Below, piece by piece: positions 4,901 through 61,056 of a stretch of DNA of 64,000 nt. A program made the position numbers and the translations under genes. The notes under the pieces are model-generated. The model did no database searches and had not been told where the DNA came from. It worked only from the letters and a program-made list of their open reading frames with translations. This stretch comes from Paraspadella gotoi (Eukaryota; Animalia; Chaetognatha), in the NCBI GenBank assembly GCA_051294375.1, contig CM119264.1, forward strand, positions 29,517,182 to 29,581,181, read 5' to 3'. How positions within the stretch are numbered: the first letter of the stretch is position 1; each line of letters opens with the position of its first letter.

Positions 4901-7900
4901 TCACCTGAAAGCCTCTTCTTCCTCCTCATCCTCCCTCATTCCTCCGTTCAGCTCGATGTCCGCAATTTCCTCCAAAGAATCCAGAACAAGATGAAGGCGT
5001 CGATGGTGATCGAATCCGCCGAAGCAGTCCTTCAGGAAGCCTTAATTAAAAGTATAATTAAAATGTTATGATATTTGAAATAATAATTATTTAATCGTTA
5101 ATTGAACCACAAATAAAAATCATCTTTTGGCAATGAAAAATACAATTGTTACACGTTAAAGATAATAGAAAAGAAATTAATAAATATTTTATTAAAACAC
5201 GACAATATGTAAATGATATTGATGACTCATAGATTGATTTCAACGATTGATTAATTGGGTTGAATTGATTTAATTAATTGAACTTTTATAGTTTTCCGTT
5301 CTCCAATTCTCTCACCGGTAATGAGCTTGTAAAGATGCTTCCTCGTGGGATCCCCGACGAGCCCGTGATGCTTGTCTGGATAGACTTGACTCCTAAATTG
5401 GATTCCTTCTTCGATCATGCTTTTCGTCAGCATCGCCGAGTGTTGGTAGTGGACGTTGTCTGAAACGAAAATGATATTTAGTGCGACAAGTTCACAATAT
5501 TTTACTCAGGACAATTCACCAAAAAAAAATGAAAAATTTAAAGATTTGCAATATTAGGATACCTTAGCCTAGGGGAGATGTCCTTGTAAACCATTGAAAC
5601 AGTTCGTAAGAAGAGTATACAACTTCATTTATATTGCTTCTCTAAGAGTTAATAAACTAGACCCTAGACAGTAAGGGAGCTTACAGGTTAAACTGGTTAG
5701 AGTCCTGCTAGGTTATTATCCTGTAAGACGGAGGAGGGTCTTAACCCATCGATTGATTGATTGATTGATTGATTGTTGATTTATTAAAATAATGAATAAT
5801 TTTATTTTGTAGAATGTATTATTTGATTTAAAACTATTCTAAATACCATCTGCCGTCCCGTGAATGAGAAGGAATTTGACTTTCTGGAAGTTACTGGCCA
5901 GCGAAGAAACGTTGGCGTTCTGAGGAAAAAAAAACATAAACATTATAATATAAAAGGATATATATATATATAAAGGATTTTTTTTAAATGCCGTCAGCGA
6001 GACTCACTCTATAATTGTAGAAATTGTCTTCTTTGGACGGATTGCCCATGTATCGCTCGGTGTATATGCTATCTGAAATTTGAAAGAAAGATTTATTGAT
6101 TGATAGATTCATTGACTGTTAGATTGATAGATTGATTGATTGATTTACTGAAAGATTGATAGATTGACTGACTGATAAATTTTTTAATAGATATATTAAT
6201 TAATTGATTGATTGATCGATTCCATCCACCCTTCACCATAATAAGTCCAGTCGGTCACGGGTGCTACTGCGACGCCGCACTGGAAGAGGTCGTGCTCCAC
6301 GTTGCGGCCGAGGACGGAGGCGGCGACGAAGCCTCCGTAGCTCCAGCCCATGATCGCCATCTTGAGGGGATCCACGTAGTGGACGTTGTCTTGGAAGTAT
6401 CTGGATTAGAAACTATCTGGATTAGTATCTGGATTAGAAATAAAAGGATTGTGAGGCGAATTGAACAGATGGCGCTCTTAAAAATTAACATGAATTTAGC
6501 GAAAAAGGAATTTGTGGTGAAAGTTAAATTTATAAAGAATCATTAAATAAAACGGAAAATGTAAAATGTAAAATCTACAAGTTTTGCCGTTTGATTTCTT
6601 TAGCCAAAAAAACTCATGAAGCACAAATTTGAAAACACAATTTTTCATTTATTTCCAATTTACAATTTGTTTGAAATGACTAAGAAAGAATTTATCAATG
6701 TTTGCTTCAGCACCATTTTTTTAGTTTTACAACAATTTAGAAATAAGTAAATCAGCGACCAAATTTCACAAAGTCACTTTCACCACAATATTAGAACTTA
6801 ACAATAGAACAACGTCCTTCATCGGATTCACCTCGCTGCCGCCATTTGATCGTCGACCTCCAAAGTCCCCAACTTCCGGTAGATGGCGTGAAGGAAGGCG
6901 TCGCCACGACCTCCAGTTCCTCGTCCGTCGACAGTTACGACGATGACGTCGTGATAAGAGGCCAGGTAGTGATCCCAATCCAATTTCCACTCGTAGGTCA
7001 CTTTTTGAGACCCGGGTCCGTTGTAGACTTGGAAGAGGGTCGGGTAGCGGACGATCTAATTGGGGGGGGGAGAGTCAGGAAATGAAAATGGTAATTGTAA
7101 ATGGTAAAAGTTGTTAAAAATTGTGGATCAGGGTTAAAGGTTTGGGTTAAGGGACAGGGTTTAGGATTAGGTTAGGATTAGGGATTATGGTTATTGGTTA
7201 GGGATCAGGGTTAAGGGTTAGGGTTTAGGATTAGGGTTAGGATTAAGGATTATGGTTAGGGATAAAGGTTAAGGGTTAGGGGTTAGGGTTTAGGACTAGG
7301 TAAGGATTAGGGATTATGGTTAGGGATCAGCGTTCGGTATTAGTTTTTAAATATAAGAACATCATCGCAGGATTATCAAGTCACCAAAAGCAAATCGGAT
7401 CGGAGACTCGGGCGATCTTCGGGGAAATGGAATCGCCGAATCCTGATTGGTCAAGTATAACATTGAGTTCCTCAATTTCTTTTGAGATAATCCACTAATT
7501 AATCTGGTCCACAAGCATGGAAACGGAATTGACAAATCAGCTTGCAAAATCATTGGAACTGTAAATTATACCCGTGTCGCCGATCCTCTTCCTTAGTTAT
7601 AAATAAACTTAGCTTGTTCTAGTTTCAGTAGCATTGATCAAGACTCCTGCCCGTGTCTCACCGTCACCTTTATTCTCAGAATAAAATCTCATCTCGATTT
7701 CGCTTCTAGAAATCCATGAGTTTTTCCTTCAATGTGGTGGCAGCGGTGGGATTCGAACCCTCGTCTCCGAAGAGACTGGTTAAATATCAAGGTTAAAATC
7801 AAATTCTGGGATAAACGAACAGAAACTGGGACCTCTTGGAATAGAGAGCCAATCTTTTTTGTCCTCATGTGACTCTTCAAAAGCTCACCCCACACTACCC

Positions 7901-9710
7901 CGTATCCATCGCAACGACCTTACCTCTTTCTTGTTGAGGACGGGAGGAAGGATGACCTGCGCCCAAAGGTGAGTATCGTCTTCGTCTCCCAAAGGAATCG
8001 ATATCCACTCGGTCGTCGACATCGCCGTTCCGTTGAGGAGACCCTGCAGGTCCGAGTTGTCCTCCAGCAAGAGCAAGGCTGTCGAATAGCGGTTGAGTGT
8101 GGCTGATTTTATTGGATTTTTTATGGTTTATTTGATTTGATTTTTGATTTGATTTTTGATTTGATTTTTGATTTGATTTTTGATTTGATTTGATTTGATT
8201 TTTGATTTGATTTTTGATTTCATTTTTGATTTCATTTTTGATTTCATTTTTGATTTCATTTTTGATTTCATTTTTGATTTCATTTGATTTGATTTAATTA
8301 ATTTAAAACATCTAAGGATTAATTTCCTATCAAATTTAATCTACCAGTATCGTTGGCGTCCAGATCTATATCTGCTCGATGCAATGTGACACTCGGCAAC
8401 GCAGGACCGTGACACGTAAGGATGTAGTGTTTTGCGGCGGGCGAGAAGTTCACGCTGTTTAAGGTCGAGTTAATAAACGTGAATCGTGATTGAAATGTAC
8501 AGTTAGTGGTTAAGGTTTATGATTAGGTTAAGGAATAGATTTGTAATTAAGATTTGGGATTTAGTTTGTGATTAGGGTATTAGAGATTGATTAAATTTAT
8601 GTAGGTTAAATATTGAAATTAAATTAAATTCTGGGAGAGAAGAACAGAAATGGAGCACTTATGGCAACTGCCGGGTTGCCTGTGATGCCCATTGGGATGG
8701 GGCATCTCACTGTTGGCTTTGGGGCTTCCGACCCTCAGTGACGCATCCAGTCACTGGCGCGGTTACCCTAGGACGGTCTCGCTTTGCCAACGCAGAGGGA
8801 AGTCATTAAGAACTGTGGATGGAACACTACGCCTGGGATGGTGTGTTCCCCCTCTGAGCCAATGGATTTGGCTGAACGATGGTGGACGTGAGGCGGTGTG
8901 AATATACCGCCACAGGATCCCCGGACCAAGACATCACTCAGGTTCCTCAAGCCTGAGAGGTGTCTGACAAGACTGTCACCATAGTGGGAGAGAGAGAGAG
9001 AGAGCGCGAGTTGTGGGGGCATAGGCGTTTGTCTTAGCGTACCCAGGGGCATAGGCGTTTGTCGTAGCTACCCAAAGTCGGCAGGGCATAGGCGTTTGTC
9101 GTAGCGTACCCTGAGAAGGTTGCGTGTTCGATAGTAGGGCTCACCACTTATGGCAACAGCCGGGTTGCCTGTGATGCCATTGGGATGGGGCATCTCACTG
9201 TTGGCTTTGGGGGCTTCCTGACCCTCAGTGATGCATCCAGTCACTGGCGCGGTTACCCTAGGACGGTCTCGCTTTGCCAACGCAGAGGGAAGTCATTAGG
9301 ACTGTGGATGGAACACTACGCCTGGGATGGTGTGTTCCCCCTCTGAGCCAATGGATTTGGCTGAACGATGGTGGACGTGAGGCGGTGTGAATATACCGCC
9401 ACACACTCTCGGAAAAGAGAGCATTTTTTTTTAAATTGCGAACGTTCAATAATTTTTTTTTTTGCAAATCACTCACATCTGATAATTGTCTTGGAAAACG
9501 TCATCGAGAGGAGACTAATAATATATTATATTTATTTTTATAAATCGCCAAATATGAAATATCGAATGTCACATATATATTGACCCGCGTCATGAGACTT
9601 TTTTTCCAGTTGAGCGAATCAACATTCGCTTTGCCTTTTTTGACTCAAGGTCATAGAAATTCTGTTCCGCAGTCTCTCTTTCTCTNNNNNNNNNNNNNNN
9701 NNNNNNNNNN

Positions 9711-9796
<86 letters not shown>

Positions 9797-12700
9797 AGAC
9801 TGCGGAACAGAATTTCTATGACCTTGAGTCAAAAAAGGCAAAGCGAATGTTGATTCGCTCAACTGGAAAAAAAGTCTCATGACGCGGGTCAATATATATG
9901 TGACATTCGATATTTCATATTTGGCGATTTATAAAAATAAATATAATATATTATTAGTCTCCTCTCGATGACGTTTTCCAAGACAATTATCAGATGTGAG
10001 TGATTTGCAAAAAAAAAAATTATTGAACGTTCGCAATTTAAAAAAAAATGCTCTCTTTTCCGAGAGTGTGTGGCGGTATATTCACACCGCCTCACGTCCA
10101 CCATCGTTCAGCCTAAATCCATTGGCTCAGAGGGGGAACACACCATCCCAGGCGTAGTGTTCCATCCACAGTCCTAATGACTTCCCTCTGCGTTGGCAAA
10201 GCGAGACCGTCCTAGGGTAACCGCGCCAGTGACTGGATGCATCACTGAGGGTCGGAAGCCCCCAAAGCCAACAGTGAGATGCCCCATCCCAATGGCATCA
10301 CAGGCAACCCGGCTGTTGCCATAAGTGGTGAGCCCTACTATCGAACACGCAACCTTCTCAGGGTACGCTACGACAAACGCCTATGCCCTGCCGACTTTGG
10401 GTACGCTACGACAAACGCCTATGCCCCTGGGGTACGCTAAGACAAACGCCTATGCCCCCACAACTCGCGCTCTCTCTCTCTCTCTCCCACTATGGTGACA
10501 GTCTTGTCAGACACCTCTCAGGCTTGAGGAACCTGAGTGATGTCTTGGTCCGGGGATCCTGTGGCGGTATATTCACACCGCCTCACGTCCACCATCGTTC
10601 AGCCAAATCCATTGGCTCAGAGGGGAACACACCATCCCAGGCGTAGTGTTCCATCCACAGTCTTAATGACTTCCCTCTGCGTTGGCAAAGCAGACCGTCC
10701 TAGGGTAACCGCGCCAGTGACTGGATGCGTCACTGAGGGTCGGAAGCCCCAAAGCCAACAGTGAGATGCCCCATCCCAATGGGCATCACAGGCAACCCGG
10801 CAGTTGCCATAAGTGCTCCATTTCTGTTCTTCTCTCCCAGAATTTAATTTTAATTTCAATATTTAACCTACATAAATTTAATCAATCTCTAATACCCTAA
10901 TCACAAACTAAATCCCAAATCTTAATTACAAATCTATTCCTTAACCTAATCATAAACCTTAACCACTAACTGTACATTTCAATCACGATTCACGTTTATT
11001 AACTCGACCTTAAACAGCGTGAACTTCTCGCCCGCCGCAAAACACTACATCCTTACGTGTCACGGTCCTGCGTTGCCGAGTGTCACATTGCATCGAGCAG
11101 ATATAGATCTGGACGCCAACGATACTGGTAGATTAAATTTGATAGGAAATTAATCCTTAGATGTTTTAAAATTAATTAAATCAAATCAAATGAAATCAAA
11201 AATGAAATCAAAAATGAAATCAAAAATCAAATCAAAAAAAATCAAATCAATAAAATAATCAAAAATTTCAAATTCAAAAATCAAATCCTCTCTCTCTCTC
11301 TCATCCCCCGGATTTGTTCCCGACCTTCGGCTTTTAAATATTAAATCAATGTCTCATTCAAAAGTAAAAACTTGTTCGCATATTTCCCATTTTTCCTCAT
11401 TCTTTTGCCATATATGCATCTCATATATTCTCTTTCCCTCTCACACTTTCTTCCTCACATCTTCCTTTTTCACGACCTCACCTGTAATATTCACAGTTTT
11501 TCTTCATGTTGCAAGTGACGCATTCTGGAGTCACAAGTGACGCGCGAGAGGACGCCACAAATATTCTGTCAAAATAAAAATAGATTTACAAACCAAATAA
11601 TCAATATGATTGAACTAGTTATTATGTCGTTCAAATCTAAATAGGATTATCATTTTATAATTTTATAGAGAGAATTCCAGCTCAGTTCTTTTTCACTTAT
11701 GTTAAGACTTTTTCAAAGTTGTCCCGCCAACAGATTTGAGATAACCCCTAATTGTCGACATGCTTTTTCAGTCTCACCAATGGTGATACCCTTCGAGATT
11801 GTACAGGTGCTTTTTTTTTTCAGATAGAGATGTCTTTACAGACGATCTCCTACCTGTAGAGATGTCTTTTGAGAGGATTGCCTCCCGTGCCGATGAAGTA
11901 AAGGATTCCATTGACTTGGTCGTAGGCGGCGAGTTCCATCACATCCCAAGGCTCGTGCGTAAGAATGTGTTGCGCCCCGGGTTTGTCCAGAGTCTAAATT
12001 ATAATTCGCTTTCAATTTGACGAGGGTCAAAGAAGGTGGTGATGCTTTGATTTTACAAACAGGTAATACTTATTGAATTTTTTTAAAGGTTTCTTAAGAG
12101 CTACTTAGGTCTCATTTTAATGTTAATTAAGTTAATAAAAACATTATTATATCGTGGATTAACTTATTCGCCATCTTTGCTTTTACGCTTTTTAAGACAA
12201 ATAAACTTCAGACCTTTCATACGAAAACAGTTTACAAAATCAATCTTTTTTCCATTATTTGACGCGCTGCAGACTTTGCGCCTTGTGCATCAACACCATT
12301 AGACACTGTGGAGCAACTACTTCAATCACATTCGCCACTGTGCCGCACAGACATTTTCTCTCACCGACGAATTGACGAGAACTATTTGCTTGAAGGCGCC
12401 GCGAATTCCGTCCTCCACCGGAAGTAGTAAGAAGTAGGCGTCGCCGGATGGAACGAATAGAGGCGGTCGCGTCGCCTCCACCCATCCGCGTTGGACGCCA
12501 TGAGCCACTACCTCGGCGCTCTGAGCGGTGAGGGAATGGGTCTGTGGCTTAGAGATAGACGGATAGACAGACAGAAAGATTGAAGGGTGAAAGGACACAC
12601 AGATAAAAAGATAAAACTGACAGACGAACAGTAAGACGGACAGATAGACGGACTGACAGATAGACTGAAAGACTACAAGATGAAACGGCGAAAAGAACAG

Positions 12701-15700
12701 AGAGACGAACGGATAGTTTGAAGAACAAACAGACATACAGACAAAAAAAACACCCAGACAGTCAGACAAAAACAACCAGAAAGACCAAGAGAGAGAAGAC
12801 AGAGAGACAGATAGGCAGACAGACAATCTGACAAATAATGACTCTGACAGACAGAGAGACAAACAAGCATTAAAAAAGTTAAGCAGTCCAACAACCAGAG
12901 AGACCGGAAAGGAAGAGACGGACTGACCGACCGATTAACGCCCAGACAGACGGACCGACCATGAGGATTTACCCCGTAACAAACTCCGCCTTCGATGACG
13001 TTGCAGATGGAGATGATGGAATGATTCTGGGCTCGATTGAGCCACGTCACCGCCACGTGACTGGCGTCGCGCCACACGACAGCAGTGACGTAGAAGTCAC
13101 TGGAAATGAGAGCGACATGTTAGGGAATGAATGAATGAATGAATGAATGAATGAATGAATGAATGAATGAATGAATGAATGAATGAGCGAACGAAGAAAT
13201 TATTTAATGAAAAAAATGTATGTATGAATCAATGAGTGAATCAAAGAATGAATGAATGAATCAATTAATTTATCAATGAATGTATGAATGAATGAATGAA
13301 TGAATGAATGAATGAATGAATGAATGAATGAATGAATCAAAGAATCAATGAGTGAATAAAAGAATGAATGTTTGAATGAATGAACCAATAAATAAATGAA
13401 CCAATAAATGAATGAATGAATGAATGAATGAATGAATGAATGAATGAATGAATGAATGAATGAATGAATGAATGAATGAATGAAAATCAAAACAACTAAC
13501 CCGTCGGCAAACTTCTTGGGCGGAGGGAGTTGGATCTTCTTCTTGGTCTCCAGGTCATGAACGAGGACCGTGACCTGGGGATTCGTGGCGCCCGGTTTGG
13601 GATACCGGATGGATTGCTGTCGGTTGTAGGGGTCCCCGCTTCCGTAGAAGGGAAACGTGTAGAGGGGCACCTGTGAGGGGGGGGAGTAGAAGGAAAGAAG
13701 GAAAGATAAAAGGGTCATCCATCCTTAATGTTTCGCCGCCTTTCTTTCTTTTCTTTCCTTCCTTTCCTTCCTTTCCTTCCTTTCCTTCCTTGCTTCCTTC
13801 CTTTCTTCCCTCCTCTCTCCCTCCCCTCCTCCCTCTCCTCTCTCACTCCCCTCCTCCTCGCCCCCTCCCTCATCTCCTCCCTCTCCTCTTCCCCGTCCTC
13901 CCGCTCCTCCTTCCTCTCATCCCCTCCCCCTCTCCCTCTCCCCTTCCCTTCTCCTCCCCCTCTCCTCCCAACCTTGGAATCGTCAAACTTGACGTAGCAG
14001 ATTCTCCTCAGATCGGGCGCCCACCAGAGGGCGTGGTCTGAGGCGAAGACTTCTTCCTCGTAGACCCAATCTGGGATCCCGTTGTAAATCACATCCGGGT
14101 CGCCGTCGTCTGGAGATGGGATTGGATAGGAGGGATAGGATAGGATAGGATAGGATAGGAGGGAGACAGGGATTTTATATCGAATTAGTTGGTTTCGATA
14201 TATATTTCAATTGTATTTCGTTAAAAAACGAGGCTTTTTAACATTATGATGTCATTTTCGAAGTTTACGTTAATAATACGCTCAATATTACACTTAAACC
14301 ATCATAGGCTGTCCAAAGACGGGGCCACTGTCTATCGAGCTTTTTTTGAAAAGGCTAAACCTGAAACAAGAATTGTTAAACGATGGAATTTTATTTACTT
14401 TTAAGTTTTGACAGTTTTTACAATTGATAATGAAATCGTAATATTTTTAGTTTTAAACACAAAATCGAGTATTTTGTGCTTCTATTCTGGGCGAACAATT
14501 GACAAAAAAAAAACAGATTAAAGTTTTATCAAGCCTCGACCGTAGAATTATTATAAGTTAACATTTAATGAACATTTTTTGGCGAACCAAAACAATTCGT
14601 TCCATAGCAACAACACCAATAACAACAACAACAACAACTTCCTCACTGGTGATCGGCGTCGGTTTCGCCGTCGGTGACGTCATCACGTAGATGTCGTTTC
14701 TAAAAATAAACAAAAGCCTCGATCCGGCGCCCGGCGCCCAATCAGCGAATTGAAGGCGCGCGTAGTCGCCGTTTTTTGGCGGCGTCGTCGGCGGCGTTCG
14801 GGGTCGCGGCGCTCCCGGGTTCGGCAGCGCCGGTCTCGGGCGACGCCGGCGAAGCCAAGTAGCGTTTACGGCGCCCGATCCGACCCCTTTTTCCTTTTTG
14901 GGCCCAGCAATGTAGATGGTTTTTCTGTTGGGGGGAAAAAAAGAGAGGAATTGGTCAAAAATTTGATTGTTATATAAGATACATAGATATAACTTTGTTA
15001 TTATTCACATCACATATAATGAAGAGACAGTGATTATTGTTATGTTTTAGTGACAGAACCGTTCAATATAAGCAGTCCCTGAGCTTCGATCAGGCTGTAA
15101 CACCATATCATCACGCATAAAACGGGGTATATTTTTTCGCAATCGTGTAAACAAAAAGATTTCGGAATCTTCTTTTACCGGTTTTTTTAAATTTCAGATT
15201 TTTTAAAAATTTCTTTTTCCTTAATTTTTTCTTTTTTTTCTCAATTCTTTTTTCTCAATTTTTTTTCAAATAATTAATTCCTAATTACTATTGCATAAAA
15301 AGGTTTTTATTCAATAATTCATACAAAATATCGAGATTGGTTTATTTTTATTAAACATTGCATTCGAAATTCAAATCATTTCAAATCAGATGAAAAGGAT
15401 GAAAATCAGAGAGAGAGACAGTGAGAGAGAGAGAGAGAAAGAGAGAAGAGAGACTCTCTTAGAACTTCTTCAAGTTCAAAGCAAACATCTTGTTAAGGTA
15501 TAGTTGCCGCTAAAAAACCATTGTCAGCAGAATATTGGACTCCGGTATCAATAGAATCTAAAATTTATGATAAAAAGACAGAATTTATCGAAAAGGAAAG
15601 TAAAAACAACTAAATATGTTCTCAAAGATTTTCAAGAAGACTGTTCTCATTTTGTGCGGGCCATACCGTGAGACATATCATGAATTTCAGTAACGAGTTG

Positions 15701-17369
15701 AAAGGTCTTTTCATCCTCTTGAATTCGCCGTATGCGAACGAAAAATTTTTCAGGGAAAAATCAATAAAATGAAGAAAATATCACTTAATTCGCGAATTCC
15801 AACGCGGTAAACGTTTAAACTATTCCTTTTCGGTTTTACCCCATTTTATGCGTGATGTTTACAGGCGGGTTAAGCGCCCCGTCCCTCTTAACTGCCAGAC
15901 GACCACCGGCGAGAACCCCGGACCTTGGGGTTGGAGGCGAATGACTTGCCTCCGGCACCAATGGCCGCAGATGAACGGTTGGTGGATTTAGTACACCATA
16001 ATATCGACATATTTTTAAGCCAACATCAGTGGCTAAAAGAGACAAAACTATTTACTTTATCTTGATTCATAATCATCTTGAGCGACTTTTTTTCTTCAGC
16101 TCATTTCTCAGCATCACAACTTAAATTACGAACTAAAATTTCTCACAAAATAATTGTAAACGCACAATCAAGTTTCAAACTAACCTGGCATCTCTGACGT
16201 AAATGGCGTATTTTGCCAGCGTTGTGTGACGGTACACCTGTAAATGAAAATGTAAAGAGATCAAACTTAAAGACAAGGATGATTCACTCTATCAGCGATC
16301 CAATCCATCACAGAAAATCCATCACAGAAAATCCATCACAGAAAATCCAACACAGAAAACCCAACACAGAAAATCCATCACAGAAACTCACGCTTTCGAT
16401 GTCGTATGAAAGAAGAACATATTTTTGGTCTGGCGAAACTTTAAAACTCAATGAATCAACGTTAAGGCGTCTCTGAAAACAAAAAATTCATTTCGCTGAG
16501 CAGATTTCACTGACAAGAGTTTAGTCTGATTTATGCAAGACTTTGTTACCCCGATTGTTGCTATCCCTTGAAATTTTTACTTTGGTCTGCTATCTGGATT
16601 GCTTTGCCCCATGGAAAGGAAAATTGTACTTCCGACTATCACTACTGATATTCAATAGCTATCCCGAAATTTTGTCAATATTATTTCGATAGTTAATAGC
16701 TATTTCGATAGTCAATTTTAATCTGATAGTCAATAACAATTCTGATAGTCAATAGCAATCCCGATAGTCGATTAAAATTCTGATAGTTAATTTTATTCTG
16801 ATAGTCAATAACAATTTTAAAGTCAGTGGTAATCCCGATAGTCAATAGCTATCGCGATATTCGTTTGCAACACCGATCTTCATTCCCCTCATTCAACTCA
16901 CGAATGTCGTGTTGTCCATTGAAGCTGCCGTCTTCTTGCTCCAGTGACCCGCGTTGTCTCGAACGACGGCTCCGTTTCGATCTTGAAAAATGTATTCATC
17001 GTCTGTGAAAAAAAGAGAGACGATGCTCTTTTATTTTTTTGAACATAAATAATTTAAAATTAAAGAAAAATAGCATATCAATATCATGGAGATTAAATAT
17101 ATTATACGCATATATTTAAACAAATACCGGCTACGTATAGACGATTTTTTTTCGTCGTAAAACCACAAATTAACTCAACAGTCAACGAGTCACGAGTTAT
17201 GTCACAAAAATACGCGACAAAGAAAAAAATGTGTTTTTTTTTCTTTTCGTTTTGTCTTTTCATTTATAAAAAAAGCAACAACGGATGACGACGGTTGCCA
17301 AGGGCGACGGAGTGGAAACTTGAATTTTTTTTTTTTAAATTCTGGAAAAAGGGACGACGACAACGACGC

Positions 17370-41786: not shown

Positions 41787-42470
41787 GGCCTTATTTTCCA
41801 AGAACGCCCCTTTTTATCTTATATTCGGAATTTGATATTTCGTTTTTGAATCGGAATTAGGTCTAATTTTTTTTTAATTTATTAAGTAAAAGGTTAGAGT
41901 TTGGGATTTAGTTTAGGAATTTAGGTTAGGGATTTAGGTTAAGGATTTGGGTTAGGGATTTAGGTTAAGGATTTAGGTTAGGGACTAGCATTAAGGGTTG
42001 GCGGTTAGGGTTAAAAATTAGGGGTAAGAGTTAGGGTTAAGTTTCAGGATTAAGTTAGGGTTAAAATTTAAAATATGAATTTGGGTTAGGGATTGGTTAA
42101 AATCAAAAATTAAAACTAAAAAATTATGGACAAAGTGCTAAATAGGCTGAAAACTACTATCCGTAACTTCTATACCCCCTCAGCAACCATGGAAAGTGTC
42201 TTAGGCTCAGAACCAGGCTTGAAGGTTTTCCACGACCCTAAAGCGGTTTACGGCCATCCTCACACTTCCCGCAGGGCAGGTACCGGGTTAGGATTAAACC
42301 GGAAGGTCATGAGCTGATGGCTTTACTCAATGAACCACCGGGTCATAACTGAAGGGATCATGCTTATAGGCGGGGTGAACTTAGGCAATGCCCGACTATA
42401 AATTAAAAGTTAAAATTAAATTTTAGGAAAACAAACGAAAAAGAGGGGGGCACACTCGGAAAAAAGAGCC
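41787..42470 (+). mobile_element. Complete MITE with imperfect TIRs of about 24 bp and an internal degenerate TTAGGG array
   Basis: Left end GGCCTTATTTTCCAAGAACGCCCC; reverse complement of right end GGCTCTTTTTTCCGAGTGTGCCCC; telomere-like repeats at about 41890-42100. Confidence 0.75.
42127..42399 (+). mobile_element. 5'-truncated non-LTR retrotransposon 3' end (family C) nested in the MITE
   Basis: Flanked by AAATTA at 42121-42126 and 42400-42405. DKVLNRLKTTIR...MESVLGSEPG aligns with DKALRGLKSTLR...MERAQGLEPG* at 29.1 kb. Confidence 0.65.
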
Positions 42471-43779
42471 CATCCCACCCCGACATCCATTTCATCCATT
42501 TTTTGCCTGATCGTCCGTCGGCAACAAAGGACGCGATGAGTAGAACTGATATTTGGAACAACTTCTCGTCGCCTCCCAATCGTGAGAGAGGTTGGGTTGA
42601 GTGTTGACGCCCGCAGCACAACTGTCGCATTTGACTTTGGTTGGGGGGAGGATGCGGGCGGGGGGGTGGTGAGAGGATTTCCAAGTCATTTACCATGGCA
42701 ACGAAGAAAGTTTATTACGTGAGAAATAGAACGAGTTTTATTGACATAATAACACTTTGGGATGACGATAATTGACATACAAAGTATTTAGACGATGCAG
42801 AGAAAAATCAGGCGGTAAACAATATAACAAATAGTCCTTAAGGAGTTTGATGTTAGTTTCTTGAAGGTAAGTCGAAGAGTGATCTCGTTCCTTCTCTGAT
42901 TGGTCAATCAGAAGAAAAGACGGAGAAGAAAAAAGAAGGAAGCTGCTTGAGAAGGCAAGCTCTCTGATTGGTCAAGAGAGATAATCCATTCTCTGCGATG
43001 ATGATATCAGAGAAAATGAGGAAGATAATTTCCAGACATGTATGCAAACTTTTAAAATTTAGAAAGGCAAAGTATATTTTGAAATGCTATATTTATTTTT
43101 CATAGTAGTAGATACATTTTTTTACTAGAAAATTATTCTAAAAACCAACAGCGCGAACGATGTGAAAAGAGAATAGTGCATTGTGATGCAGTAATACTAG
43201 TAAAAAAAGTAAGTAAAGAAAGTAAGTAAAGAAAGTAAGTAAAGAAAGTAAGTAAGTAAAAAGAGATAAAAGATTAAAAAATCTTCACAGCGAAAGAAAA
43301 GTGAAAATAATCGAAAACATCGTAATCGGCATTTGAAAAAAAATGAGAAGAACTGGTGAAGTTCACGAATGCAGAAAGAGAGTGAAACGTGAAAAGTGAG
43401 AGTCGAAGGTCATCCGTCGTCCGTCGTCGCATCCATCACATTGTCGTCGTTCGTACGTCATCGTCTGTTGTCGTTCGTCGTCGTATCATCATCATTGTCG
43501 TCGTCCGTAGCTCATCGTCTTTTGTCGTCCGTCGTCATCATCATCATTGTCGTCGCGTCCATCTCGTCGTAGTCATCGTCTTGTCGTCGTCGTCATCATC
43601 ATCATTTGTGTCGTCGTCGTAGTCTCGACGTCTTGTCGTCGTCGTCATCATCATCATTGTCGTCGTCGTCATCATCATCATTGTCGTCGTCGTCGTCCAT
43701 CGTCGTCGTATCATCACATCGTCGTTTGTCGTCGTCATCTGTCGATCCACACGTTGTCCGTCGTCGTCCATCCGTCGTC

Positions 43780-44035: not shown

Positions 44036-44738
44036 CTTTTCACCCGTTTTCCATTTTTTCCAATTTTAATTCAAGAAATATCAAATGGAATTTTTCAACT
44101 CGGAGACTTTGGGAAAAAACAAAAGAAATATATGTATAAAACAAAAAATGGTTATGCTTTTTTACTGGGACTTTAAAACGTTCAAAATAGTAAATCCAGA
44201 ATAAGTTCAGCAATAAATCTTTCGATAGAGTTTTGCAAATTTCGTTTCACAAGATAAGATCGCAGAAATAATGTAAATACGTGAAAGAATAGAATCTCAC
44301 AGAGTGGAAAAATTGGCGGACAGGGTGAGACTTTCACAAAAGCGTAAAGTTGGGTCCAGCTTCGTTATAACTTGAAAGAAAGAATGAGGCCCAACAAACG
44401 CCAAAGTTTGTTCCCAAAGTGTGTCCCAAAGTGTGTCCATAGTATGTCCACAAAGTTTATATCCAAAGTGGGAGAGAAGGTCGTTTTTATGCTAATTAAA
44501 AGAAAGTGTTTACATTGGCTCTAACAATTTGACGTATTCAAGCTTTGGATTTTCGATATGATTCGCGCCAAACTTGCTTTTGCCCCAAAACAAACAAAGA
44601 GAAAAATAACCAGAGAAGACAAACTTGAGGGACGACTCAGAGGCTCAGTCAACACCATAAAGGTCTTGAGAAAAACAGGGACGAAAGAGTGGCTTTGCTC
44701 ATTGTGGAAATATGATGGGCGATAAAGGAGCAGAGAGA

Positions 44739-44806
<68 letters not shown>

Positions 44807-44896
44807 ATTAGAAAATTCCGCGAAAAGTCAACTCATCAAAAAAAAATCTTGCTTGAAAGCAAAAGGACGTCTGGTGCCATAATTACGAGGGAGGCA

Positions 44897-44927
<31 letters not shown>

Positions 44928-45619
44928 AGAGAGAATGATATGTCAAAGGATGGAAGATGAAATGTTTCAGACGTAATTCACCATGAAATGTTCCTCTTCA
45001 AATTCAATTCATTGGTTTGATTTGTCTTTCTCACAAACTCGGTTTTTAAACTCCGAAAAAAATCATTACCCAACAAAAATATGTTCACAAAAAAAAAAGA
45101 TGTAATTATAGCAAAGAGCAATAAAACAGCCTTAGGACGACTAGGCGACGTTTATATATATAATCCATAAATAACATTAACAAAAGGAGCCAACGCAGCG
45201 AATTAAAAAGAGCTGGAAATCTCTTAATCGCCAAGAGGAAAACGTCTTTAGCTTCGAAGACCTTGAGTCGAACGCCCTTCCAAAAAAAATATTCCACTGA
45301 AAAACTCACGCAGAGCATTTTAGTTGTTTTTTTTTTTACTTCACATTTAATGATTTTTTTTTCTTCTATTGTATTTTTTTTCCGATCGAAAAAGAAGATA
45401 AGGCCGCTCAGAAGTTTGTTTTAGTGAGTTTTTTAAAAGTGACTTTCCAATTCCAACCGTGAATGAACTTGTTGTGAAAGGCCGTTGTGAAACGATTGCG
45501 ATAAAATCAAGCTTTCCTCTCTCAATCTCCTCTCTCTCTCTCTCTCATCTCTCTCAGCTTCTGTCTCTCTCTCCTCTCTCTCTCTAGTCTCTCTCTCTCT
45601 GTCTTCTCTCTCCCTCTCA

Positions 45620-45651
<32 letters not shown>

Positions 45652-47462
45652 CAAAACTCTTTTCTCTCTCTCTCATCAACCTTGAAAACGCTCTTCAGTC
45701 TGCCACTTCTCATTCATTTCTTCTCATTCTTCTAAAATCCCCACAATTGCAATTCTGCTTGAACTTCTCTCCACTCAATTGCCAGGAAGGCGTCTCAGTG
45801 TGGGCGGATTGCAAGGTGACCCTTCGTCTTTGGTTGGGCCAATGGATGCAGTAGATAGGGTAGGTAAATTGCAATCAAGGGTGGTGAAATGGAAATTGTT
45901 AAAAATAAAAGGGTGGAAAAGACAAAATTGGGAATCGTCAGGAATTTCGTATTTTTTTGAGGAAAGTTGATGTGATGCTGATGTTGATGTTGATCGGTTG
46001 ATGTTGATGTTAAGGTTGATCGTCAAAGTTGGGATTTCATTTATTATGTTTGTTCTTTCTTTTATCTTCATATTTCCTTTTGTTAGGTTTTTTTTTTCTT
46101 TGTTTATTTTTTATGTTTTTATTTTTGGCACAAATGAAAAGCTACCCTTTTCATTTCCTAATCCTGGAACTTAGTTTTTTTTATTGAAAGATGTAACTCT
46201 AAATATTTTACCATAACTTTTTTTAACTTACTCCTAACCTAATTTTGATACTATTTTCCCTGAGAAGCGTCTATTTAGATTTATAATCCATACATATAAT
46301 CTTAAATCTAATATTTACTTAATTTTAAGTTTGATATGGGGCGCTTTAAAAAAAGGCCCTTATCCTATCTCTAACCTTTTTTATTTATTTTTAAATCTTA
46401 AAAAGTAACCGAATTCTGAGTTTAAACTAGAACGGGGCGCGATTGGAAAACATGGCCCTCGTTTTTGTGGCTCTCTTCCTTTTTTCTTCTTTTGTTTTTT
46501 TATTTCATTTTTTTTTTTTTTTATCCAGGAAGAAATCCTCAATCAGAAAATGAGGCCGTTTGATTTCTCTTGTTTTCCGAATCGCAATTGTTTTGTCTGA
46601 CGCTTTTTCCGTCTTACTAAGCCGCCCGACGACGACGAGACGACGAACGACGACAATCGACGTTTTAAAAAATTGGGGTCATTGAAACGTCTCAAAACGA
46701 CAGGGCAAGTCGAGAGAAAAATGACAGACGACGGACGACGACGACGAAAATATTTCTTGGGAAAACTTTCACGTGGAACTGCGACAATTAATGAGGAGAG
46801 AGAGGGAGAGAGAGAGAGGAGAGAGAATTTGGTTTTATCTTCCATCTGCCCTCAATCTCTTCAGATAATTTCCTTACGCCCTTTCTCGTTCCAATCTAAT
46901 TCTTTTTTTTTCGTTTGTCTTTTTCTCTCTTCTTTTCTTTTCTTTCATTTCTTTCTTCTCTTGCTTCTTTTCCTCTTTTCTCTTTTTTTTTCTTTTCTTT
47001 CCTTTTCTTTCGTTTCCTTTCTTTCCTCTTTTTTTTTTTCCCTTTCTTTTCTTTATTCTTTTCTTGTTCCTTCTTTTTCTTTTCTTTCTTTTCCTTCTTT
47101 TCTTTTTCTTTTCTTTTCTCTTTTCCTTTTCTTTTTTTTTTTTCCCTCGTCTTTCTTGGTAAATTATCTTTCTTTTTCTTTTTTTGCTGTCTAATATTTT
47201 TTAATTCTTTGTCTTTTCTTTCTTTACTTTTCCTTTCTAATATTTCCAACTGTTTCCTACTTATATTGTATAATCTTCCTATTTTTGACCTAAATATTTT
47301 TTTTATTACTTCTTCTTGTCAGAAATTATCTATCTGAAGTGTTTATTCATTTCACTTCATGCCTTTTCAATGTTTACCCCAATTTTTTTTTTTTTTTTCT
47401 TTTCTTCTTCTTTTTTTTTTTCATTTCCTTGTTCTCTCTTTTTTTTTTAGTTTAGCAATGTT

Positions 47463-47499
<37 letters not shown>

Positions 47500-50400
47500 C
47501 TCTCTCTCTCCTCTCCCTCCTCTCTCTCTCCTCTCCTGAATCGTTTCAACGGTCGGTAATGTTCAGGTACCTTGAGGCCTTCGTAGCGGGATACTGAGTA
47601 AGTCCATTCTTTTTACAACTTAATGTTCACGTTTCGAAAGAATAATAAAAAAGGAAAATAAAAATATAATACAAAAAAAAAAGAAAACTTTGTCTCATTC
47701 GATGTATAGTTAAACTTTAGGCCTCATTTTTATAAGATGAAATTAATAACAACGGGAGATACTCTGAATGATTTTTTGAAGAGTTGTTCAATATTTTCCC
47801 GTCCCGATTTTTTAAAAATCTTCCGTGAAATTTATCCCAAAATTAGGAATCTGGAATTTCACAAAATCGTCGGCGCCAACGACGGCACATTCTCTCTGGT
47901 CCAATCACATTAAAGCGAGGACCGTGAAATTTTGTGGCGATGATCCACATCACAAACCAACGGGGGGTGATCAGGTGAAATATAAAAGTCGTAAATCAAA
48001 ACAAAAGCGGAAAAAACGAAAAATCGGTCAATTTAGGAAGAAATGTGAACAACAACGACGTCGTGAACCAAAAACAATATTCACGTGAAGTGAGGCGCTT
48101 GTTTTGTGAAAAGAGGACTTACCTGACCGCGGTGAATCCAAGAGAAGAGAATGCGTGAAAGAAAATACTAAAAAGAAAAAGGATTAAATTAACTGGTTAA
48201 TCAATTCAGCATAAATATATAAATTAGTATAATAAGTTAATAAATCAAGTATATGCAGTAGATGGATTGATTTAACAATGATAAGCATGTGTATTNNNNN
48301 NNNNNNNNNNNNNNNNNNNNCGTCGTCGTCGTCATCATCTTCATTGTCGTCGTCGTCGTGATGCTCGTCTCGTCTCTTCGTTTTCGATTCACAGAATTTA
48401 AAATCTTCAACCGAAAATTTAATCAAATNNNNNNNNNNNNNNNNNNNNNNNNNNNNNNNNNNNNNNNNNNNNNNNNNNNNNNNNNNNNNNNNNNNNNNNN
48501 NNNNNNNNNNNNNNNNNNNNNNNNNNNNNNNNNNNNNNNNNNNNNNNNNNNNNNNNNNNNNNNNNNNNNNNNNNNNNNNNNNNNNNNNNNNNNNNNNNNN
48601 NNNNNNNNNNNNNNNNNNNNNNNNNNNNNNNNNNNNNNNNNNNNNNNNNNNNNNTTAATTCAAGAAATATCAAATGGAATTTTTTTCACTCGAGACTTTT
48701 GGGGAAAAAACAAAGAAATATATGTAATAAAACAAAAAATGGTTATGCTTTTTTACTGGGACTTTTAAAACGTTCAAAATAGTAAATCCAGAATTAAGTT
48801 CAGCAATAATCATTTCGATAGAGTTTGCAAATTTCGTTTCACAAGAGTAAGATCGCCAAGATAAGTAAATCGTGAAAGATAGAATCTTCACAGAGTGGAA
48901 AATGGCGGAAGGTGAACTTTCACAAAGCGTAAAGTTGGGTCCAGCTTCGTTATTAACTTGAAAGAAAGAATGAGGCCAACAAACGCCAAAGTTTGTCCAA
49001 AGTGTGTCCAAAGTGTGTCCATAGTATGTCCAAAGTTTATCCAAAGTGGGGAGAGAAGGTCGTTTATTAATCTAATTAAAAGAAAGTGTTACATTGGCTC
49101 TAACAATTTGATCGTATTCAAGCTTTGGAATTTTCGATATGATTCGCGCCAAACTTGCTTTGTCCCAAAACAAACAAAAGAGAAAAATAAACAAGAGAAA
49201 CAAACTTGAGGGACGGACTCAGGGAGCTCAGTCAACACCATTAAGGTCTTGAGAAAACAGGGACGAAAGAGTGGCTTTGCTCATTGTAAGAAGAGAATCA
49301 TAATTAACGACGAGGGAGGCAAGAGAGAGAGAGAGAGAGAGAAGAGAGAGACGAGAAGAGAGAAGAGGAGAGGAGAGAGAGAGAGAGANNNNNNNNNNNN
49401 NNNNNNNNNNNNNNNNNNNNNNNNNNNNNNNNNNNNNNNNNNNNNNNNNNNNNNNNNNNNNNNNNNNNNNNNNNNNNNNNNNNNNNNNNNNNNNNNNNNN
49501 NNNNNNNNNNNNNNNNNNNNNNNNNNNNNNNNNNNNNNNNNNNNNNNNNNNNNGAGAGAGAGAGAATATATGTCAAGGATGAAGATGAATGTTTCAGACG
49601 TAATTCACCATGAATGTTCCCTCTTCAAATTCATTCATTGTTTGATTTGTCTCTCACAAACTCGTTTTTAAATCCGAATAAAATCATTTACCCCAACAAA
49701 AATATGTTTCCAAAAAAAAAAGATGTAATTATACAAAGCAATAAAATCAGCTAGGACGACTAGGCGACGTTTTTATATATAATCCATAAATAACATTAAC
49801 AAAAAGGAGCCAACGTCCCGAATTAAAAGAGCTGGAAATTCTTAATCGCCAAAGAGGAAAACGTTTTAGCTCGAGACCTTGAGTCGAACGCCCTTCAAAA
49901 AAAAATATTCCACCTTGAAAAACTCACGCAAGCATTTTTAGTTTGTTTTTTTTTTACTTCACCAATTTAATGATTTTTTTTTCTTCTAGTATTTTTTTTC
50001 GATCGAAAAAGAAAGATAAGGCGCTCAGAAGTTTGTTTTAATTAGTTTTTAAAAGTGAATTTCCAATTCAACCGTGAATGAACTTGTTGTGAAAGCGTTG
50101 TGAAACGATTGCGATAAAATCAAGCTTTCCTCTCTCTCTCCCTCTCTCTCTCTCTCTCTCACCTTGAAACGCTCCTTCAGTCCTCCACTTCTCATTCTTT
50201 CTTCTCATTTCTTCTAAAATCCCCACATTGCAATTCTGCTTGACTTCTCTCCACTCATCCAGGAGGCGTCTAGTGTGGGCGGGATTGCAAGGGTGACCCT
50301 TCGTCTTTGTTGGCCAATGGATGCAGTAGAAGGGTAGGTATTGCACAAGGGTGGTGAAGGAAATTGTTAAAATAAAAGGGTGGAAAAGACAAAATTGGGA

Positions 50401-51962
50401 ATCGTCAGGAATTTCGTATTTTTTGAGGAAAGTTTGATGTTGATGCTGATGTTGATGTTGATGGTTGATGTTGATGTTAAGGTTGATGTTAAAGTTTGGA
50501 TTTCATTTATTATGTTTGTTTCTTTCTTTTTTTATCTTCATATTTTTCCTTTTGTAGGTTTTTTTTTTCTTTTGTTTTATTTTTTATTTTTATTTTTGGC
50601 ACAAATGAAAAGCTACCCTTTTCATTTCCTAATCCTGGGAACTTAGTTTTTATTGAAAGATGTAACTCTAATATTTTACCATAACTTTTTTTTAACTTAC
50701 TCTCTAACTTAATTTTGATACTATTTTCTGAGAGCGTCCTATTTAGATTTATAATCCATACATATAATCTTAAATCTAATATTTAGCTTTAATTTAAGTT
50801 GATATGGGGCGCTTTTAGAAAAAAGGGCCCTTATCCCTATCTCTAACCTTTTATTTATTTTTAAATCTTTAAAAGTAACCGAATTCTGAGTTTAAACTAG
50901 AACGGGGCGCGATTGGAAAACATGGCCTCGTTTTTTGTGCCTCTCTTCCCTTTTTTCTCTTTTGTTTTTATTTCATTTTTTTTTTTTTTTTAATCAGGAA
51001 GAATCCTCATCAGAAAATGAGGCCGTTGATTTCTCTTGTTTTTCCGATCGCAATTGTTTTGTCTGACGGCTTCTGTTTCTTACTAAGCCGCCGACGACGA
51101 CGAAGACGACGACGACGACAACGACGTTTTAAAATGGGGTCATTGAACGTCTCAACGACAGGGCAAGTCGAGAGAACAAAATGACGACGACGACGACGAC
51201 GACGAAAATATTTTCTTGGAAAACTTTCACGTTGGAACTGCGACAATTAATGAGAGAGAGAGGGAGAGAGAGAGAGAGAGAGAGAATTTGGGTTTTATCT
51301 TCCATCTGCCCTCATCTCTTCAGATAATTTCCTTACCCTTTCTCGTTCCAATCTAATTCTTTTTTTTCGTTTTGTCTTTTTCTTCTCTTTTCTTTTCNNN
51401 NNNNNNNTTTTTTTTCGTTTTGTCTTCTTCTTCTCTTTTCTTTTCTTTTCTTTTCATTTCTTTTCTTCTCTTGCTTCTTTTCCTCTTTTCTCTTTTTTTT
51501 CTTTTCTTTCCTTCTCATTTCTTTACCTTTCTTTTCCTCTTTTTTCTTTTCTTTTCTTTTCTTTTCTTTTCTTTTCTTTTCTTTTCTTTTCTTTTCTTTT
51601 CTTTTCTTTTCTTTTCTTTTCTTTTCTTTTCTCTCTTTTCTTTGGTAAATTATCTTTCTTTTTCTTTTTTTGCTGTCTAATATTTTTTTTATTTCTTTCT
51701 TTTCTTTCTTTACTTTTCCTTTTCTAATATTTCAACTGTTTCCTACTTTATATTTTATATCTTCCTATTTTTTGCACCTAAATATTTTTTTTTATTACTT
51801 CTTGTCAGAAATTATCTTATCTGAAGTGTTTATTCATTTCACTTCATGTCCTTTTCAATGTTTTTTATCCAATTTTTTTTTCTTTTCTTTTCTTCTTTTT
51901 TTTTCATTTCCTTTGTTCTCTCTTTTTTTTTCGTTGCAATGGTTCTCTCTCTCTCTCTCTCT

Positions 51963-52012
<50 letters not shown>

Positions 52013-52750
52013 CGTTCACACGGTCGGTAATGTTCCAGGTACCTTGAGGCAGTCGTAGCGGGGATCTGAGTAGTCCATTCTTTACAACTTAATGTTCAAC
52101 CGTCGAAAGAAAAAAAAAGGAAAATAAAAAATATAATACAAAAAAAAAGAAAACTTTGTCTCATTCGATGTATAGTTAAACTTTAGGCCTCATTTTTATA
52201 ATGATGAAATTAATACAACGGGAGATACTCTGATGATTTTTTGAAGAGTTCAATATTTTTCCGTCCCGATTTTTTAAAAATTCTTCGTGAAATTTAATCC
52301 CAAAATTAGGAAATCTGGAATTCACAAATCGTCGGCGCCAACCGACGTCACATTCTCTGGTTTCCAAATCACATTAAAGCGAAGGACCGTGAATTTTGTG
52401 GCGATGATCACTCACACCACGGGGGTGATCAGGTGAAATATAAAAGTCGTAAATTCAAAACAAAAGAGGAAAAAACGAAAATCGGTCACATTTAGGAAGA
52501 AAATGAAACAACAACCGACGTCGTGAACCAAAACAATATTCACGTGAAGTGAGGCGCTTGTTTTTGTGAGAGTGACTTACCTGCCGCGGGTGAAATCCAA
52601 GAGAGAGAAAGCGTGAAAGAAAATATAAAAAGAAAAAGGATTAAATTAACTGTTTAATCAATTCACATAAATAAGTATAAATTTAGTATAAATAAGTATA
52701 AATTCAGTATATGCAGTAGATGGATCTGATTTACAATGATACAGTGTATT
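43780..52750. repeat. Direct duplication of about 4.5 kb (about 43780-48295 versus 48321-52750) across a 25-N gap; probable assembly artefact
   Basis: Colinear copies differing mostly by single-base indels; the junction is exactly at the N run 48296-48320. Confidence 0.85.
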
Positions 52751-59981: not shown

Positions 59982-60319
59982 TGCTGCTTCGGCTGCTGTT
60001 GCGGTGGCTGCTGCTGTTGTCTTTGTTGTAGATGAACTTTAGGCCTTATTTTTTGAGAACGCCCTATTTAATCTTAAACTCGGAATTAGTCTAGGGATTG
60101 GCATAGTAATTAAGGTTTTAGGGATTAGGTTAGGGACTAGGGTTTAGGGTTAGGGTTAGGCTTCAGGATTAGAGTTTGAGATTACGATTAAGGATAAGGG
60201 TTATAAATTTAAGAACGTATAAAAGTTAAAATTTAATTTCGGGATAAAGCAACAGAAATATAGCGCACTGAAGAGACAGTAATTATTGTTTATGGTTAGT
60301 GACAGAACCGTTCAATATA

Positions 60320-60394
60320 AGCAGTCCCTGAGCTTCGGATCAGGCTGTAACACCGAGTTACAGGCGGGTTAAGCGCCCCGTCCTCTTAACTGCC
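60320..60394 (-). ncRNA. Twister ribozyme candidate, type P5 (family B, 3' LTR)
   Basis: Same fold as 60734-60809 with one fewer G in the P2/L1 strand. Confidence 0.65.
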
Positions 60395-60733
60395 AGACGA
60401 CCACCGGGCTAGAACCCCGGACCTTTGGTTGGGAGGCGAATGACTTGCCTCCGGCACCAATGGCCGCTGATGAACGGTTGGTGGATTTTAGTCCAACATA
60501 CATCCCCCCCTCCCGTAGGGAGAAGTCTGTTGCGTCTCTTCAGTGAATTGTTGTTGTTGGTGGAAAGTTCGTCACCAAGTTGAGCATGTCGCCTGATGTG
60601 TTTTGGGCGGAAAGTGCATCGCCAGGTTGAGGCATGTCGCCTGAAGTGTTGTTGGTGTTGTGTTCGGAAGTCGGGCTCACCAATGAAGAGACAGTAATAT
60701 TGTTATGAGTTAGTGACAGAACCGTTCAATATA

Positions 60734-60809
60734 AGCAGTCCCTGAGCTTCGGATCAGGCTGTAACACCGAGTTACAGGCGGGTTAAGCGCCCCGTCCCTC
60801 TTAACTGCC
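60734..60809 (-). ncRNA. Twister ribozyme candidate, type P5 (family B, 5' LTR)
   Basis: GGCAGTT-AA-GAGG-GA-CGGG-GCGCT-TAA-CCC-GC-CTGTAAC..GTTACAG-CCTGA-TCCGAAGC-TCAGG-GACTGCT, giving P5, P2 (bulged), T1 TCCG/CGGG, T2, P3 and P4. P1 is reduced to a loop. Confidence 0.75.
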
Positions 60810-61056
60810 AGACGACCACCGGGCTAGAACCCCGGACCTTTGGGTTGGGAGGCGAATGACTTGCCTCCGGCACCAATGGCCGCTGATGAACGGTTGGTGG
60901 ATTTTAGTCCACCATAGCACTTCGAAAAGAGAGCCGACCTTTCTATCGGTGACTTTGTATTCATTTGTCCAATTTGTTTTTAAGTTAAGAGGAAGTTAAC
61001 TTACGAAATTCATTATTTATTAAATAGATTATTTCATTTCTTGAATCTCCGGACAG

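Follow-up and report, generated by a model that had tools for sequence, protein, structure and literature searches.

A high-copy mini-retrotransposon of a chaetognath with predicted twister ribozymes in both of its long terminal repeats

Element A, its borders and its mobility

We analysed a stretch of 64,000 nucleotides from the chaetognath Paraspadella gotoi (contig CM119264.1, positions 29,517,182 to 29,581,181; this whole stretch is hereafter called the window). Its minus strand holds a short element, A, which has a long terminal repeat (LTR) at each end and, in each LTR, a motif organized like the self-cleaving twister ribozyme. A second element with the same kind of motif, B, lies farther along the window. 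The main parts of A are as follows.

8660..9403, minus strand: element A, a terminal-repeat retrotransposon in miniature (TRIM), 744 bp, ends TG...TA
9149..9403, minus strand: 5' LTR of A, 255 bp
8660..8914, minus strand: 3' LTR of A, 255 bp
9404..9407, minus strand: target-site duplication, upstream copy, 4 bp
8656..8659, minus strand: target-site duplication, downstream copy, 4 bp
8918..8922, minus strand: run of 5 purines preceding the 3' LTR, a weak polypurine tract

The 744-bp length and the 255-bp LTRs, first proposed in an earlier, sequence-only reading of this DNA, were confirmed by the alignment of the LTRs and by the 4-bp duplication. The two LTRs differ from each other by three substitutions and four one-base indels; the element is young. 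Its GC content of 0.57 is higher than that of the host, and its longest ATG frame encodes 94 amino acids. Element A is almost certainly a high-copy, non-coding LTR mini-retrotransposon.

The contigs of runs X3, X5 and X9, which are from one organism, stop matching exactly at the ends of the A LTRs and continue into unrelated flanks, and these loose ends mark the borders of the element (8659/8660, 8914/8915 and 9403/9404). The numbers of such contigs at the LTR ends were 96+75 and at least 128 in X3, 40+43 and 69 in X5, and 21+9 and 30+7 in X9; one related run had more than 150 different flanks around A. X3 contains both junctions of the A locus; as possible source data of the assembly, it is not independent. 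The depth of a contig was used as a rough weight, and sums of depth were not taken as copy numbers. As contigs end exactly at the LTR ends with diverse, unrelated flanks, we concluded that A is mobile and abundant. Contig joints "going back" at A were accounted for by its two LTRs and gave no evidence of circles or tandems. A phage search with A gave no match.

A twister motif in both LTRs of A

The motif and the features predicted from it are placed as follows.

8712..8791, minus strand: type-P5 twister motif of the 3' LTR, predicted cut 8765 (U)/8764 (A)
9200..9281, minus strand: twister motif of the 5' LTR, predicted cut 9255/9254, with an extra base in loop L4 as assembled
8765..9254, minus strand: cut-to-cut monomer of 490 nt, a prediction
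8766..8773, minus strand: P1 linker of A, 8 bases that are self-complementary over their whole length, not long enough to form a stable hairpin, able to pair with its twin in the other LTR

Read from 8791 to 8712, the order is P5-AAA-P2'-GA-T1'-8-base linker-UAA-P2-GC-P3-A-P4/L4-P5', with a P4 loop of U-CGG-AAGC. This agrees with the order given in the sequence-only reading, except that P3 has seven pairs instead of six; the monomer length and both cut positions given there also hold as predictions. All the conserved core bases of twister (U-A-A, G-C, U-NNN-AAGC and G-A) occur in order in the motifs of both A and B. In both, the pseudoknots T1 (three pairs, one of them compensated) and T2 (two pairs) can form, and A also has the near-invariant G-C pair that closes P4. 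The general-base G of A is, by the twister numbering that we assume, 8778. The type-P5 twister is reportedly the class of Roth et al. 2014.

To scan the window we used a descriptor made from published twister features, in which P2 was relaxed to three pairs and which is thus partly post hoc. It matched at three places: the 3' LTR of A, the mirrored 5' LTR of A (see below) and the 5' LTR of B. The expectation by chance was 0.017 matches per window (60 shuffles), and one in 5000 shuffles of A gave a match. Three of the seven A and B LTR copies passed the descriptor; among the four that failed, three did so by a one-base indel and one by an insertion. From the sequence, the LTRs of A very probably hold a true twister fold, and self-cleavage of this fold at the predicted U/A site is likely.

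A second copy of the A region, in mirror orientation, needs to be considered here.

10069..10811, plus strand: mirror copy of A, part of an inverted duplication of the A region

The inverted duplication, of 1.5 kb, surrounds an N gap (8192-9685 versus 9786-11287), and over 1375 aligned columns it has no substitution and eight one-base indels. Since the mirror regions differ solely by indels, the locus has probably been assembled twice through a fold-back of the assembly, and the indels are probably assembly errors. The extra L4 base of the 5' LTR motif (at 9219/9220) is likewise probably an error, because it is missing from the mirrored copy and because no such insertion is listed among variants at 1% or more.

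A second family with the same predicted fold

Element B and its relatives in the window comprise:

60269..60916, minus strand: element B, 648 bp, LTRs of 233/232 bp, ends TA...CA, 4-bp duplication
60734..60809, minus strand: twister motif of the B 5' LTR, predicted cuts 60785/60784 and 60371/60370, predicted monomer 414 nt
60503..60514, minus strand: polypurine tract of B, 12 purines
15018..16000, minus strand: solo LTR of B, with an insertion of ~750 bp that splits the P3 loop

In all three B copies of the window, P2 has only three bases on its 5' side, and the motif in the B 3' LTR has lost one G. The insertion in the solo LTR (about 15105-15858) has terminal inverted repeats and resembles a miniature inverted-repeat transposable element.

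When the sequences of the two families were compared, we found one compensated pair in T1, two in P4 and two in P3, while P5 is wholly different; the earlier observation that pairing is kept with different bases is thereby upheld. It had also been stated that the LTRs of A and B cannot be aligned outside the motif. This stands for the whole LTR, where the alignment is not significant (56/500 shuffles were as good), and fails for two parts: the upstream halves align weakly (28/2000 shuffles as good), and the primer sites of A and B fit one pattern. From the weak alignment of the upstream halves, and from stretches resembling the A and B boxes of RNA polymerase III (Pol III) promoters that are kept in A, the two families probably share an ancestor of the form promoter–twister–LTR end, which is more than a common fold.

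Conservation of the motif among copies

Variants were taken from X3, in which 7401 contigs were aligned; 40 of the 74 variant rows were listed, and the alleles are unphased. Among the listed alleles of at least 5%, none fell on the 73 twister positions outside the P3 loop, compared with 2/7 in the P3 loop, 13/123 in the LTR upstream of the motif and 0/52 downstream of it. The value for the twister differs from that of all the outside positions (Fisher p 0.009) and from that of the upstream part (p 0.002). At a cut of 2%, six twister positions were listed as variable and the contrast with all outside positions was not significant (p 0.22). Of these six, 8715 and 8721 retain a G-U pair, two others are changes of a CpG where a helix ends, and the last two make up the centre of the P1 linker. 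CpGs of the core were never listed as variable (0/5), compared with 6/8 of the others, one of these by transversion. One contig of a second organism bears the motif with an unchanged core. At the 5% cut, these data support the proposal of the sequence-only reading that the structure is under selection: in A, the motif is more conserved than the upstream LTR.

Methylation of the copies is suggested by the many low-level variants in the A LTR (8660-8914) that change C>T or G>A at CpG. Upstream of the motif lies a 7-bp hairpin (8843-8849/8821-8827); two listed variants in it (8844, 11%; 8826, 4.5%) strike the same pair and give G-U, or G-C if they are linked.

Primer site, promoter and candidate partner

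The following features of the two elements are related to tRNA genes.

9114..9146, minus strand: primer-binding site of A, 2 bases past the 5' LTR, pairing with the 3' half of tRNA-Trp and reaching the T arm
60660..60682, minus strand: primer-binding site of B, tRNA-Trp, 13 contiguous bases counting CCA
60821..60879, minus strand: stretch of the B LTR that is derived from a tRNA, contains A and B boxes and lies upstream of the twister
8850..8861, minus strand: A-box-like 12-mer in the A LTR, at a place homologous to the A box of B, not significant alone
8817..8825, minus strand: B-box-like 9-mer in the A LTR, overlapping an arm of the hairpin described above (8849-8843 with 8827-8821)

In 29 of 33 columns, plus CCA, the primer site of A agrees exactly with a tRNA-Trp(CCA) gene from another organism. 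In a comparison with 98 tRNAs, the host's own not among them, tRNA-Trp was the best for both elements (48.0 versus 29.5 for A, 32.5 versus 23.0 for B). Both sites are bipartite, with the 3' end of tRNA-Trp, a gap of ~3 bases and a box complementary to the T arm; the match of A extends about 33 bases into the tRNA.

These sites bear on the proposal that A is no LTR element and that its repeats are the pseudo-LTRs of a non-LTR retrozyme, either a non-autonomous relative of Penelope or one of some other kind. A recent preprint (bioRxiv 10.64898/2026.07.22.740005, in the part available) derives animal retrozymes from Penelope elements, which speaks for such an origin. However, a tRNA primer site stands right behind the 5' LTR, B has a purine tract, the duplications are of 4 bp, the ends are sharp at many loci and a solo LTR exists; these features are absent from the animal non-LTR retrozymes, as far as the available part of PMC7229834 describes them. 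We regard this proposal as largely refuted.

The B stretch resembles a tRNA gene with a score of 53.5, whereas the best of 200 shuffles reached 40.5 (0/200), and nhmmer gave an E-value of 1.7e-6 on a target of two sequences. By its sequence, B carries a tRNA-derived, Pol III-type promoter in its LTR, like that of the Helenus elements. The tRNA-likeness of the A LTR is not significant (78/200 shuffles as good). Judged by the consensus of the A and B boxes, the box-like positions of A had 0/21 listed variants compared with 24/102 around them, a post hoc contrast in which the B-box-like part overlaps the hairpin arm.

Priming by tRNA-Trp and 4-bp duplications mark the CsRn1 lineage of Gypsy elements (PMC3630058, as far as available). 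By analogy, a CsRn1-type Gypsy element is a candidate for the autonomous partner of A. The primer-site pattern had no match in viral contigs and 70 matches in metagenomes, mostly in GC-rich DNA of bacterial type; in BLAST none of these was similar to A or B. The pattern of the tRNA half matched twice in viral contigs, neither time with a tRNA gene. One locus that we considered as a partner (L073/L076, G001:C523) has a full tRNA-Trp-complementary box before broken reading frames, but it was rejected as it has no LTR pair and no twister. This locus and L074/L107 (G002:C172) belong to genomes labelled bacterial with eukaryote-like contigs; the features on these contigs include a tRNA cluster and the box just described.

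Proposed mode of action

We estimate at roughly 55% the probability that A works as a twister-based LTR retrozyme, whose RNA cuts itself in both LTRs, forms a 490-nt circle and is copied by a borrowed enzyme. That the circle itself is the intermediate of transposition has about an even chance. In this scheme, transcription would begin in the 5' LTR, with Pol III as the polymerase for B and possibly for A as well, or would arrive by read-through. The twister would then cut at U/A; the imperfect P2 and the competing fold that are described below make it probable that this cut is slow. As both LTRs would be cut at the same place, the product would have no terminal repeat for the usual first strand jump, and its ends would therefore have to be joined. 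A host ligase such as RtcB, which acts on 5'-OH and cyclic-phosphate ends, could close the 490-nt circle. A tRNA-Trp-primed Gypsy reverse transcriptase would copy the circle for more than one turn and so rebuild two LTRs, and the Gypsy integrase would make the 4-bp duplication. In engineered constructs, RtcB circularizes twister-cut ends in animal cells (PMC11263348 and PMC7229834, as described in the available parts), and the copying of a circle for more than one turn to give two LTRs is a model put forward for plant retrozymes (PMC7761336, likewise in part).

Several observations weigh against this scheme or against an efficient ribozyme. The gathering score of Rfam was not reached: A matched twister-P1 in part, with 14.2 bits against a cut-off of 67.2 (E-value 9.3), and B gave no match. 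The Rfam scan of the whole window returned only low-complexity noise, and no hammerhead appeared in the Rfam scans. The P2 helix of twister is described as four Watson-Crick pairs of perhaps critical length (PMC5408937, available part), whereas it is imperfect in both families, with three bases in B and three of four pairs in A. The C-A opposition in A, which had been noticed in the sequence-only reading, is real; it lies at 8762/8779, beside the active-site A-G pair, is not among the 40 listed variant rows and is apparently fixed across family A. In P4 of B, an A-U pair replaces the near-invariant G-C.

A comparison set of type-P1 twister candidates was drawn from viral contigs; it has 13 distinct members (29 of 84 loci), whose core is the same as that of A. 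Eight of them, all in one related group, have one P2 mismatch (3/4 pairs) at the end of P2 opposite to that in A, and the position of the C-A opposition of A is paired in 13/13. A competing nested fold is more stable than the twister fold by 3.9-5.2 kcal/mol in A and by 6.3 kcal/mol in B, with the pseudoknots left out of the energies; the gap in seven viral-contig twisters was 0-2.2 kcal/mol. The stability of the A monomer is not unusual (z -1.09), unlike that of the highly paired retrozyme RNAs. Furthermore, the 52 bases downstream of the motif are as invariant as the motif, the purine tract of A is merely five bases long, and the autonomous partner was not found in the primer-site pattern scans of viral contigs and metagenomes.

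The imperfect P2 and the competing fold suggest that the A ribozyme may be slow or conditional. In plant retrozyme RNAs the hammerhead is likewise predicted in a blocked form (PMC4918200, available part). The related type-P1 group mentioned above (L133, L135, L136, L139, L147, L157, L164 and L192) has a fixed G-A in P2 and a variable P3, and two of its members, L133 and L136, are below the Rfam cut-off.

The P2 defects of both families, the competing fold, the silence of Rfam and the equal conservation of the adjoining 3' part of the LTR would also fit an inactive relic, in which the LTR captured the twister module of another retroelement and uses it in a structural or protein-binding role without cutting. 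We consider this improbable: with stems that differ, the two families still retain both pseudoknots and the unpaired bases of the catalytic core, none of which a purely structural role would require.

The same weakening features and competing fold would suit a linear route, in which a weak twister serves as the maker of the 3' end, and RNAs cut only in the 3' LTR transpose as linear TRIM molecules and no circle is formed. A cut in the 3' LTR alone would leave ~100 bases of terminal repeat, from the start of the promoter to the cut site, and the Helenus elements have been described without a ribozyme (PMC10886601, in the available part). Neither element has a run of four T in its sense strand or AATAAA in its LTRs, and thus no evident terminator; but 38% and 27% of shuffles also lack such a T run, so that its absence is not significant. 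Moreover, the two LTR copies are nearly identical, which leaves a preference for the 3' copy unexplained. We hold the linear route to be doubtful compared with cleavage in both LTRs.

The P1 linker

The linker in the place of P1 is wholly self-complementary in A (8 bases) and also in B (6 bases), and as a hairpin the A linker could form at most two pairs. It is therefore worth weighing whether, in a double twister, the linker of one LTR copy pairs with that of the other, so that cutting requires both LTRs in one RNA; this would be compatible with circles. Full self-complementarity occurs in 1.5% of windows at the length of the A linker and in 3.1% at that of B, the predicted linker duplexes have -11.0 and -8.3 kcal/mol, and the linker by itself is not predicted to form a hairpin. 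Animal retrozymes include some with dimeric hammerheads (PMC7761336, available part). Against pairing between copies, partial self-complementarity is expected of any P1 hairpin, and a co-fold of two motif copies leaves the linker duplex unused. The centre of the A linker varies (8769, 2.4% and 3.2%; 8770, 2.2%), and the unequal depths imply that some forms at least are uncompensated. In addition, P1 is dispensable in vitro (PMC5408937, as far as available). On balance, the double twister is possible but unlikely. A search of viral contigs for type-P5 twisters with a short P1 gave 84 loci, of which two passed the filter, neither with a short palindromic linker.

A bolder and somewhat less likely extension is an animal class of Pol III-driven LTR retrozymes, in which a circularly permuted twister would cut only when two LTRs swap palindromic P1 strands and the circles would be templates for a tRNA-Trp-primed Gypsy enzyme. 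If this were true, natural twister-made circular RNAs would be the natural counterpart of the engineered Tornado system.

Relation to known systems

The closest counterparts of A are the plant LTR retrozymes (Cervera et al. 2016, PMC4918200; here and below, the papers are compared in the parts that were available). Like A, they are non-coding, with a self-cleaving motif (predicted in A) in each LTR and a primer site; further likenesses are a 4-bp duplication, a GC content above that of the host and, for A, a probable Gypsy-type dependence. They also have a purine tract, which is weak in A and clearer in B. They use a type III hammerhead and tRNA-Met, whereas A has the twister pattern, tRNA-Trp and an animal host. 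A is also smaller, its monomer is not unusually stable, its cleavage and circles are predictions, and its relative B has a tRNA-derived promoter. By the strict definition, which requires a hammerhead, A falls outside the retrozymes, yet the best reading of its sequence is that it works like one.

Helenus/TRIMp3 (Kojima 2024, PMC10886601) shares with A and B the TRIM form, the tRNA-derived LTR stretch (in B), the 4-bp duplication in animals and tRNA-Trp among its primers. Unlike for A and B, no ribozyme is described for it in the available part. Four 8-mers of the twister loop had three matches in the supplement of that paper as available, each of them in an internal part and outside any twister context.

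With the type-P5 twister (PMC5408937), A has in common the U-A cut site, the general-base G, the L4 bases, T1 and T2, and P3, P4 and P5; it differs in that P1 is a self-complementary linker, P2 is imperfect and Rfam makes no call. The twister T-variants of the Schistosoma element Perere-3 (PMC8501958) also lie in an animal retroelement and have a weak or absent P1, but they are single type-P1 motifs at the 5' end of a coding non-LTR element, with no LTR pair and no predicted circle. The CsRn1 Gypsy element (PMC3630058) resembles A in its tRNA-Trp primer site and 4-bp duplication and differs in being autonomous and coding.

LTR retrozymes are said to occur "primarily" in plants (bioRxiv 10.64898/2026.07.22.740005), and one paper mentions in passing insect elements, as yet unpublished, that have type III hammerheads, as well as twisters located at the 5' ends of RTE elements (PMC7761336). 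In the literature searched, we found neither a twister located in an LTR nor an LTR retrozyme of an animal that has a primer site; the loci of Roth et al. 2014, Repbase, preprint supplements and most subscription journals were outside its scope. There, LTR retrozymes are of plants and carry hammerheads, and animal retrozymes have no LTRs, primer sites or purine tracts; A would break both rules. If our reading of A is true, ribozyme classes would be interchangeable within the retrozyme design, and twister, a widespread ribozyme with few known roles, would gain a concrete job. The coupling of a Pol III promoter to the ribozyme in B suggests how such an RNA is made.

Insertion site and other features of the window

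Two further features lie inside A.

9017..9111, minus strand: three internal repeats of ~30 bases, each a predicted small hairpin
8968..8990, minus strand: internal stretch complementary to the LTR end and the start of the primer site (predicted long duplex)

The full elements A and B each interrupt a copy of a host repeat that is followed by CCCTAA-like runs, and they do so at the same site, with an offset of one base. The coordinates of the site, all on the minus strand, are 8400-8659/9404-9425 for A and 60010-60268/60917-60935 for B. The downstream flanks of the two elements align with a score of 93 (0/1000 shuffles as good), and empty copies of the site lie on the minus strand at ~7780-7850 and 42400-42471. 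As other copies of A have diverse AT-rich flanks, the shared site (2/2 full elements) is at most a hot spot.

The window also contains a tandem duplication of ~4 kb (44149-48295 and 48740-52750, 77-93% identity), which is either real or an assembly duplicate. A GABARAPL2/ATG8 gene in a single frame lies at 56041-56391 on the plus strand; its named top hits are all from animals, the best being a sponge at 71%, and this gene, like the DPP-IV and EGF exons below, points to an animal host. Exons resembling DPP-IV lie at 13203-15004 on the minus strand, and exons for EGF domains, at 60984-61406 on the plus strand, adjoin element B.
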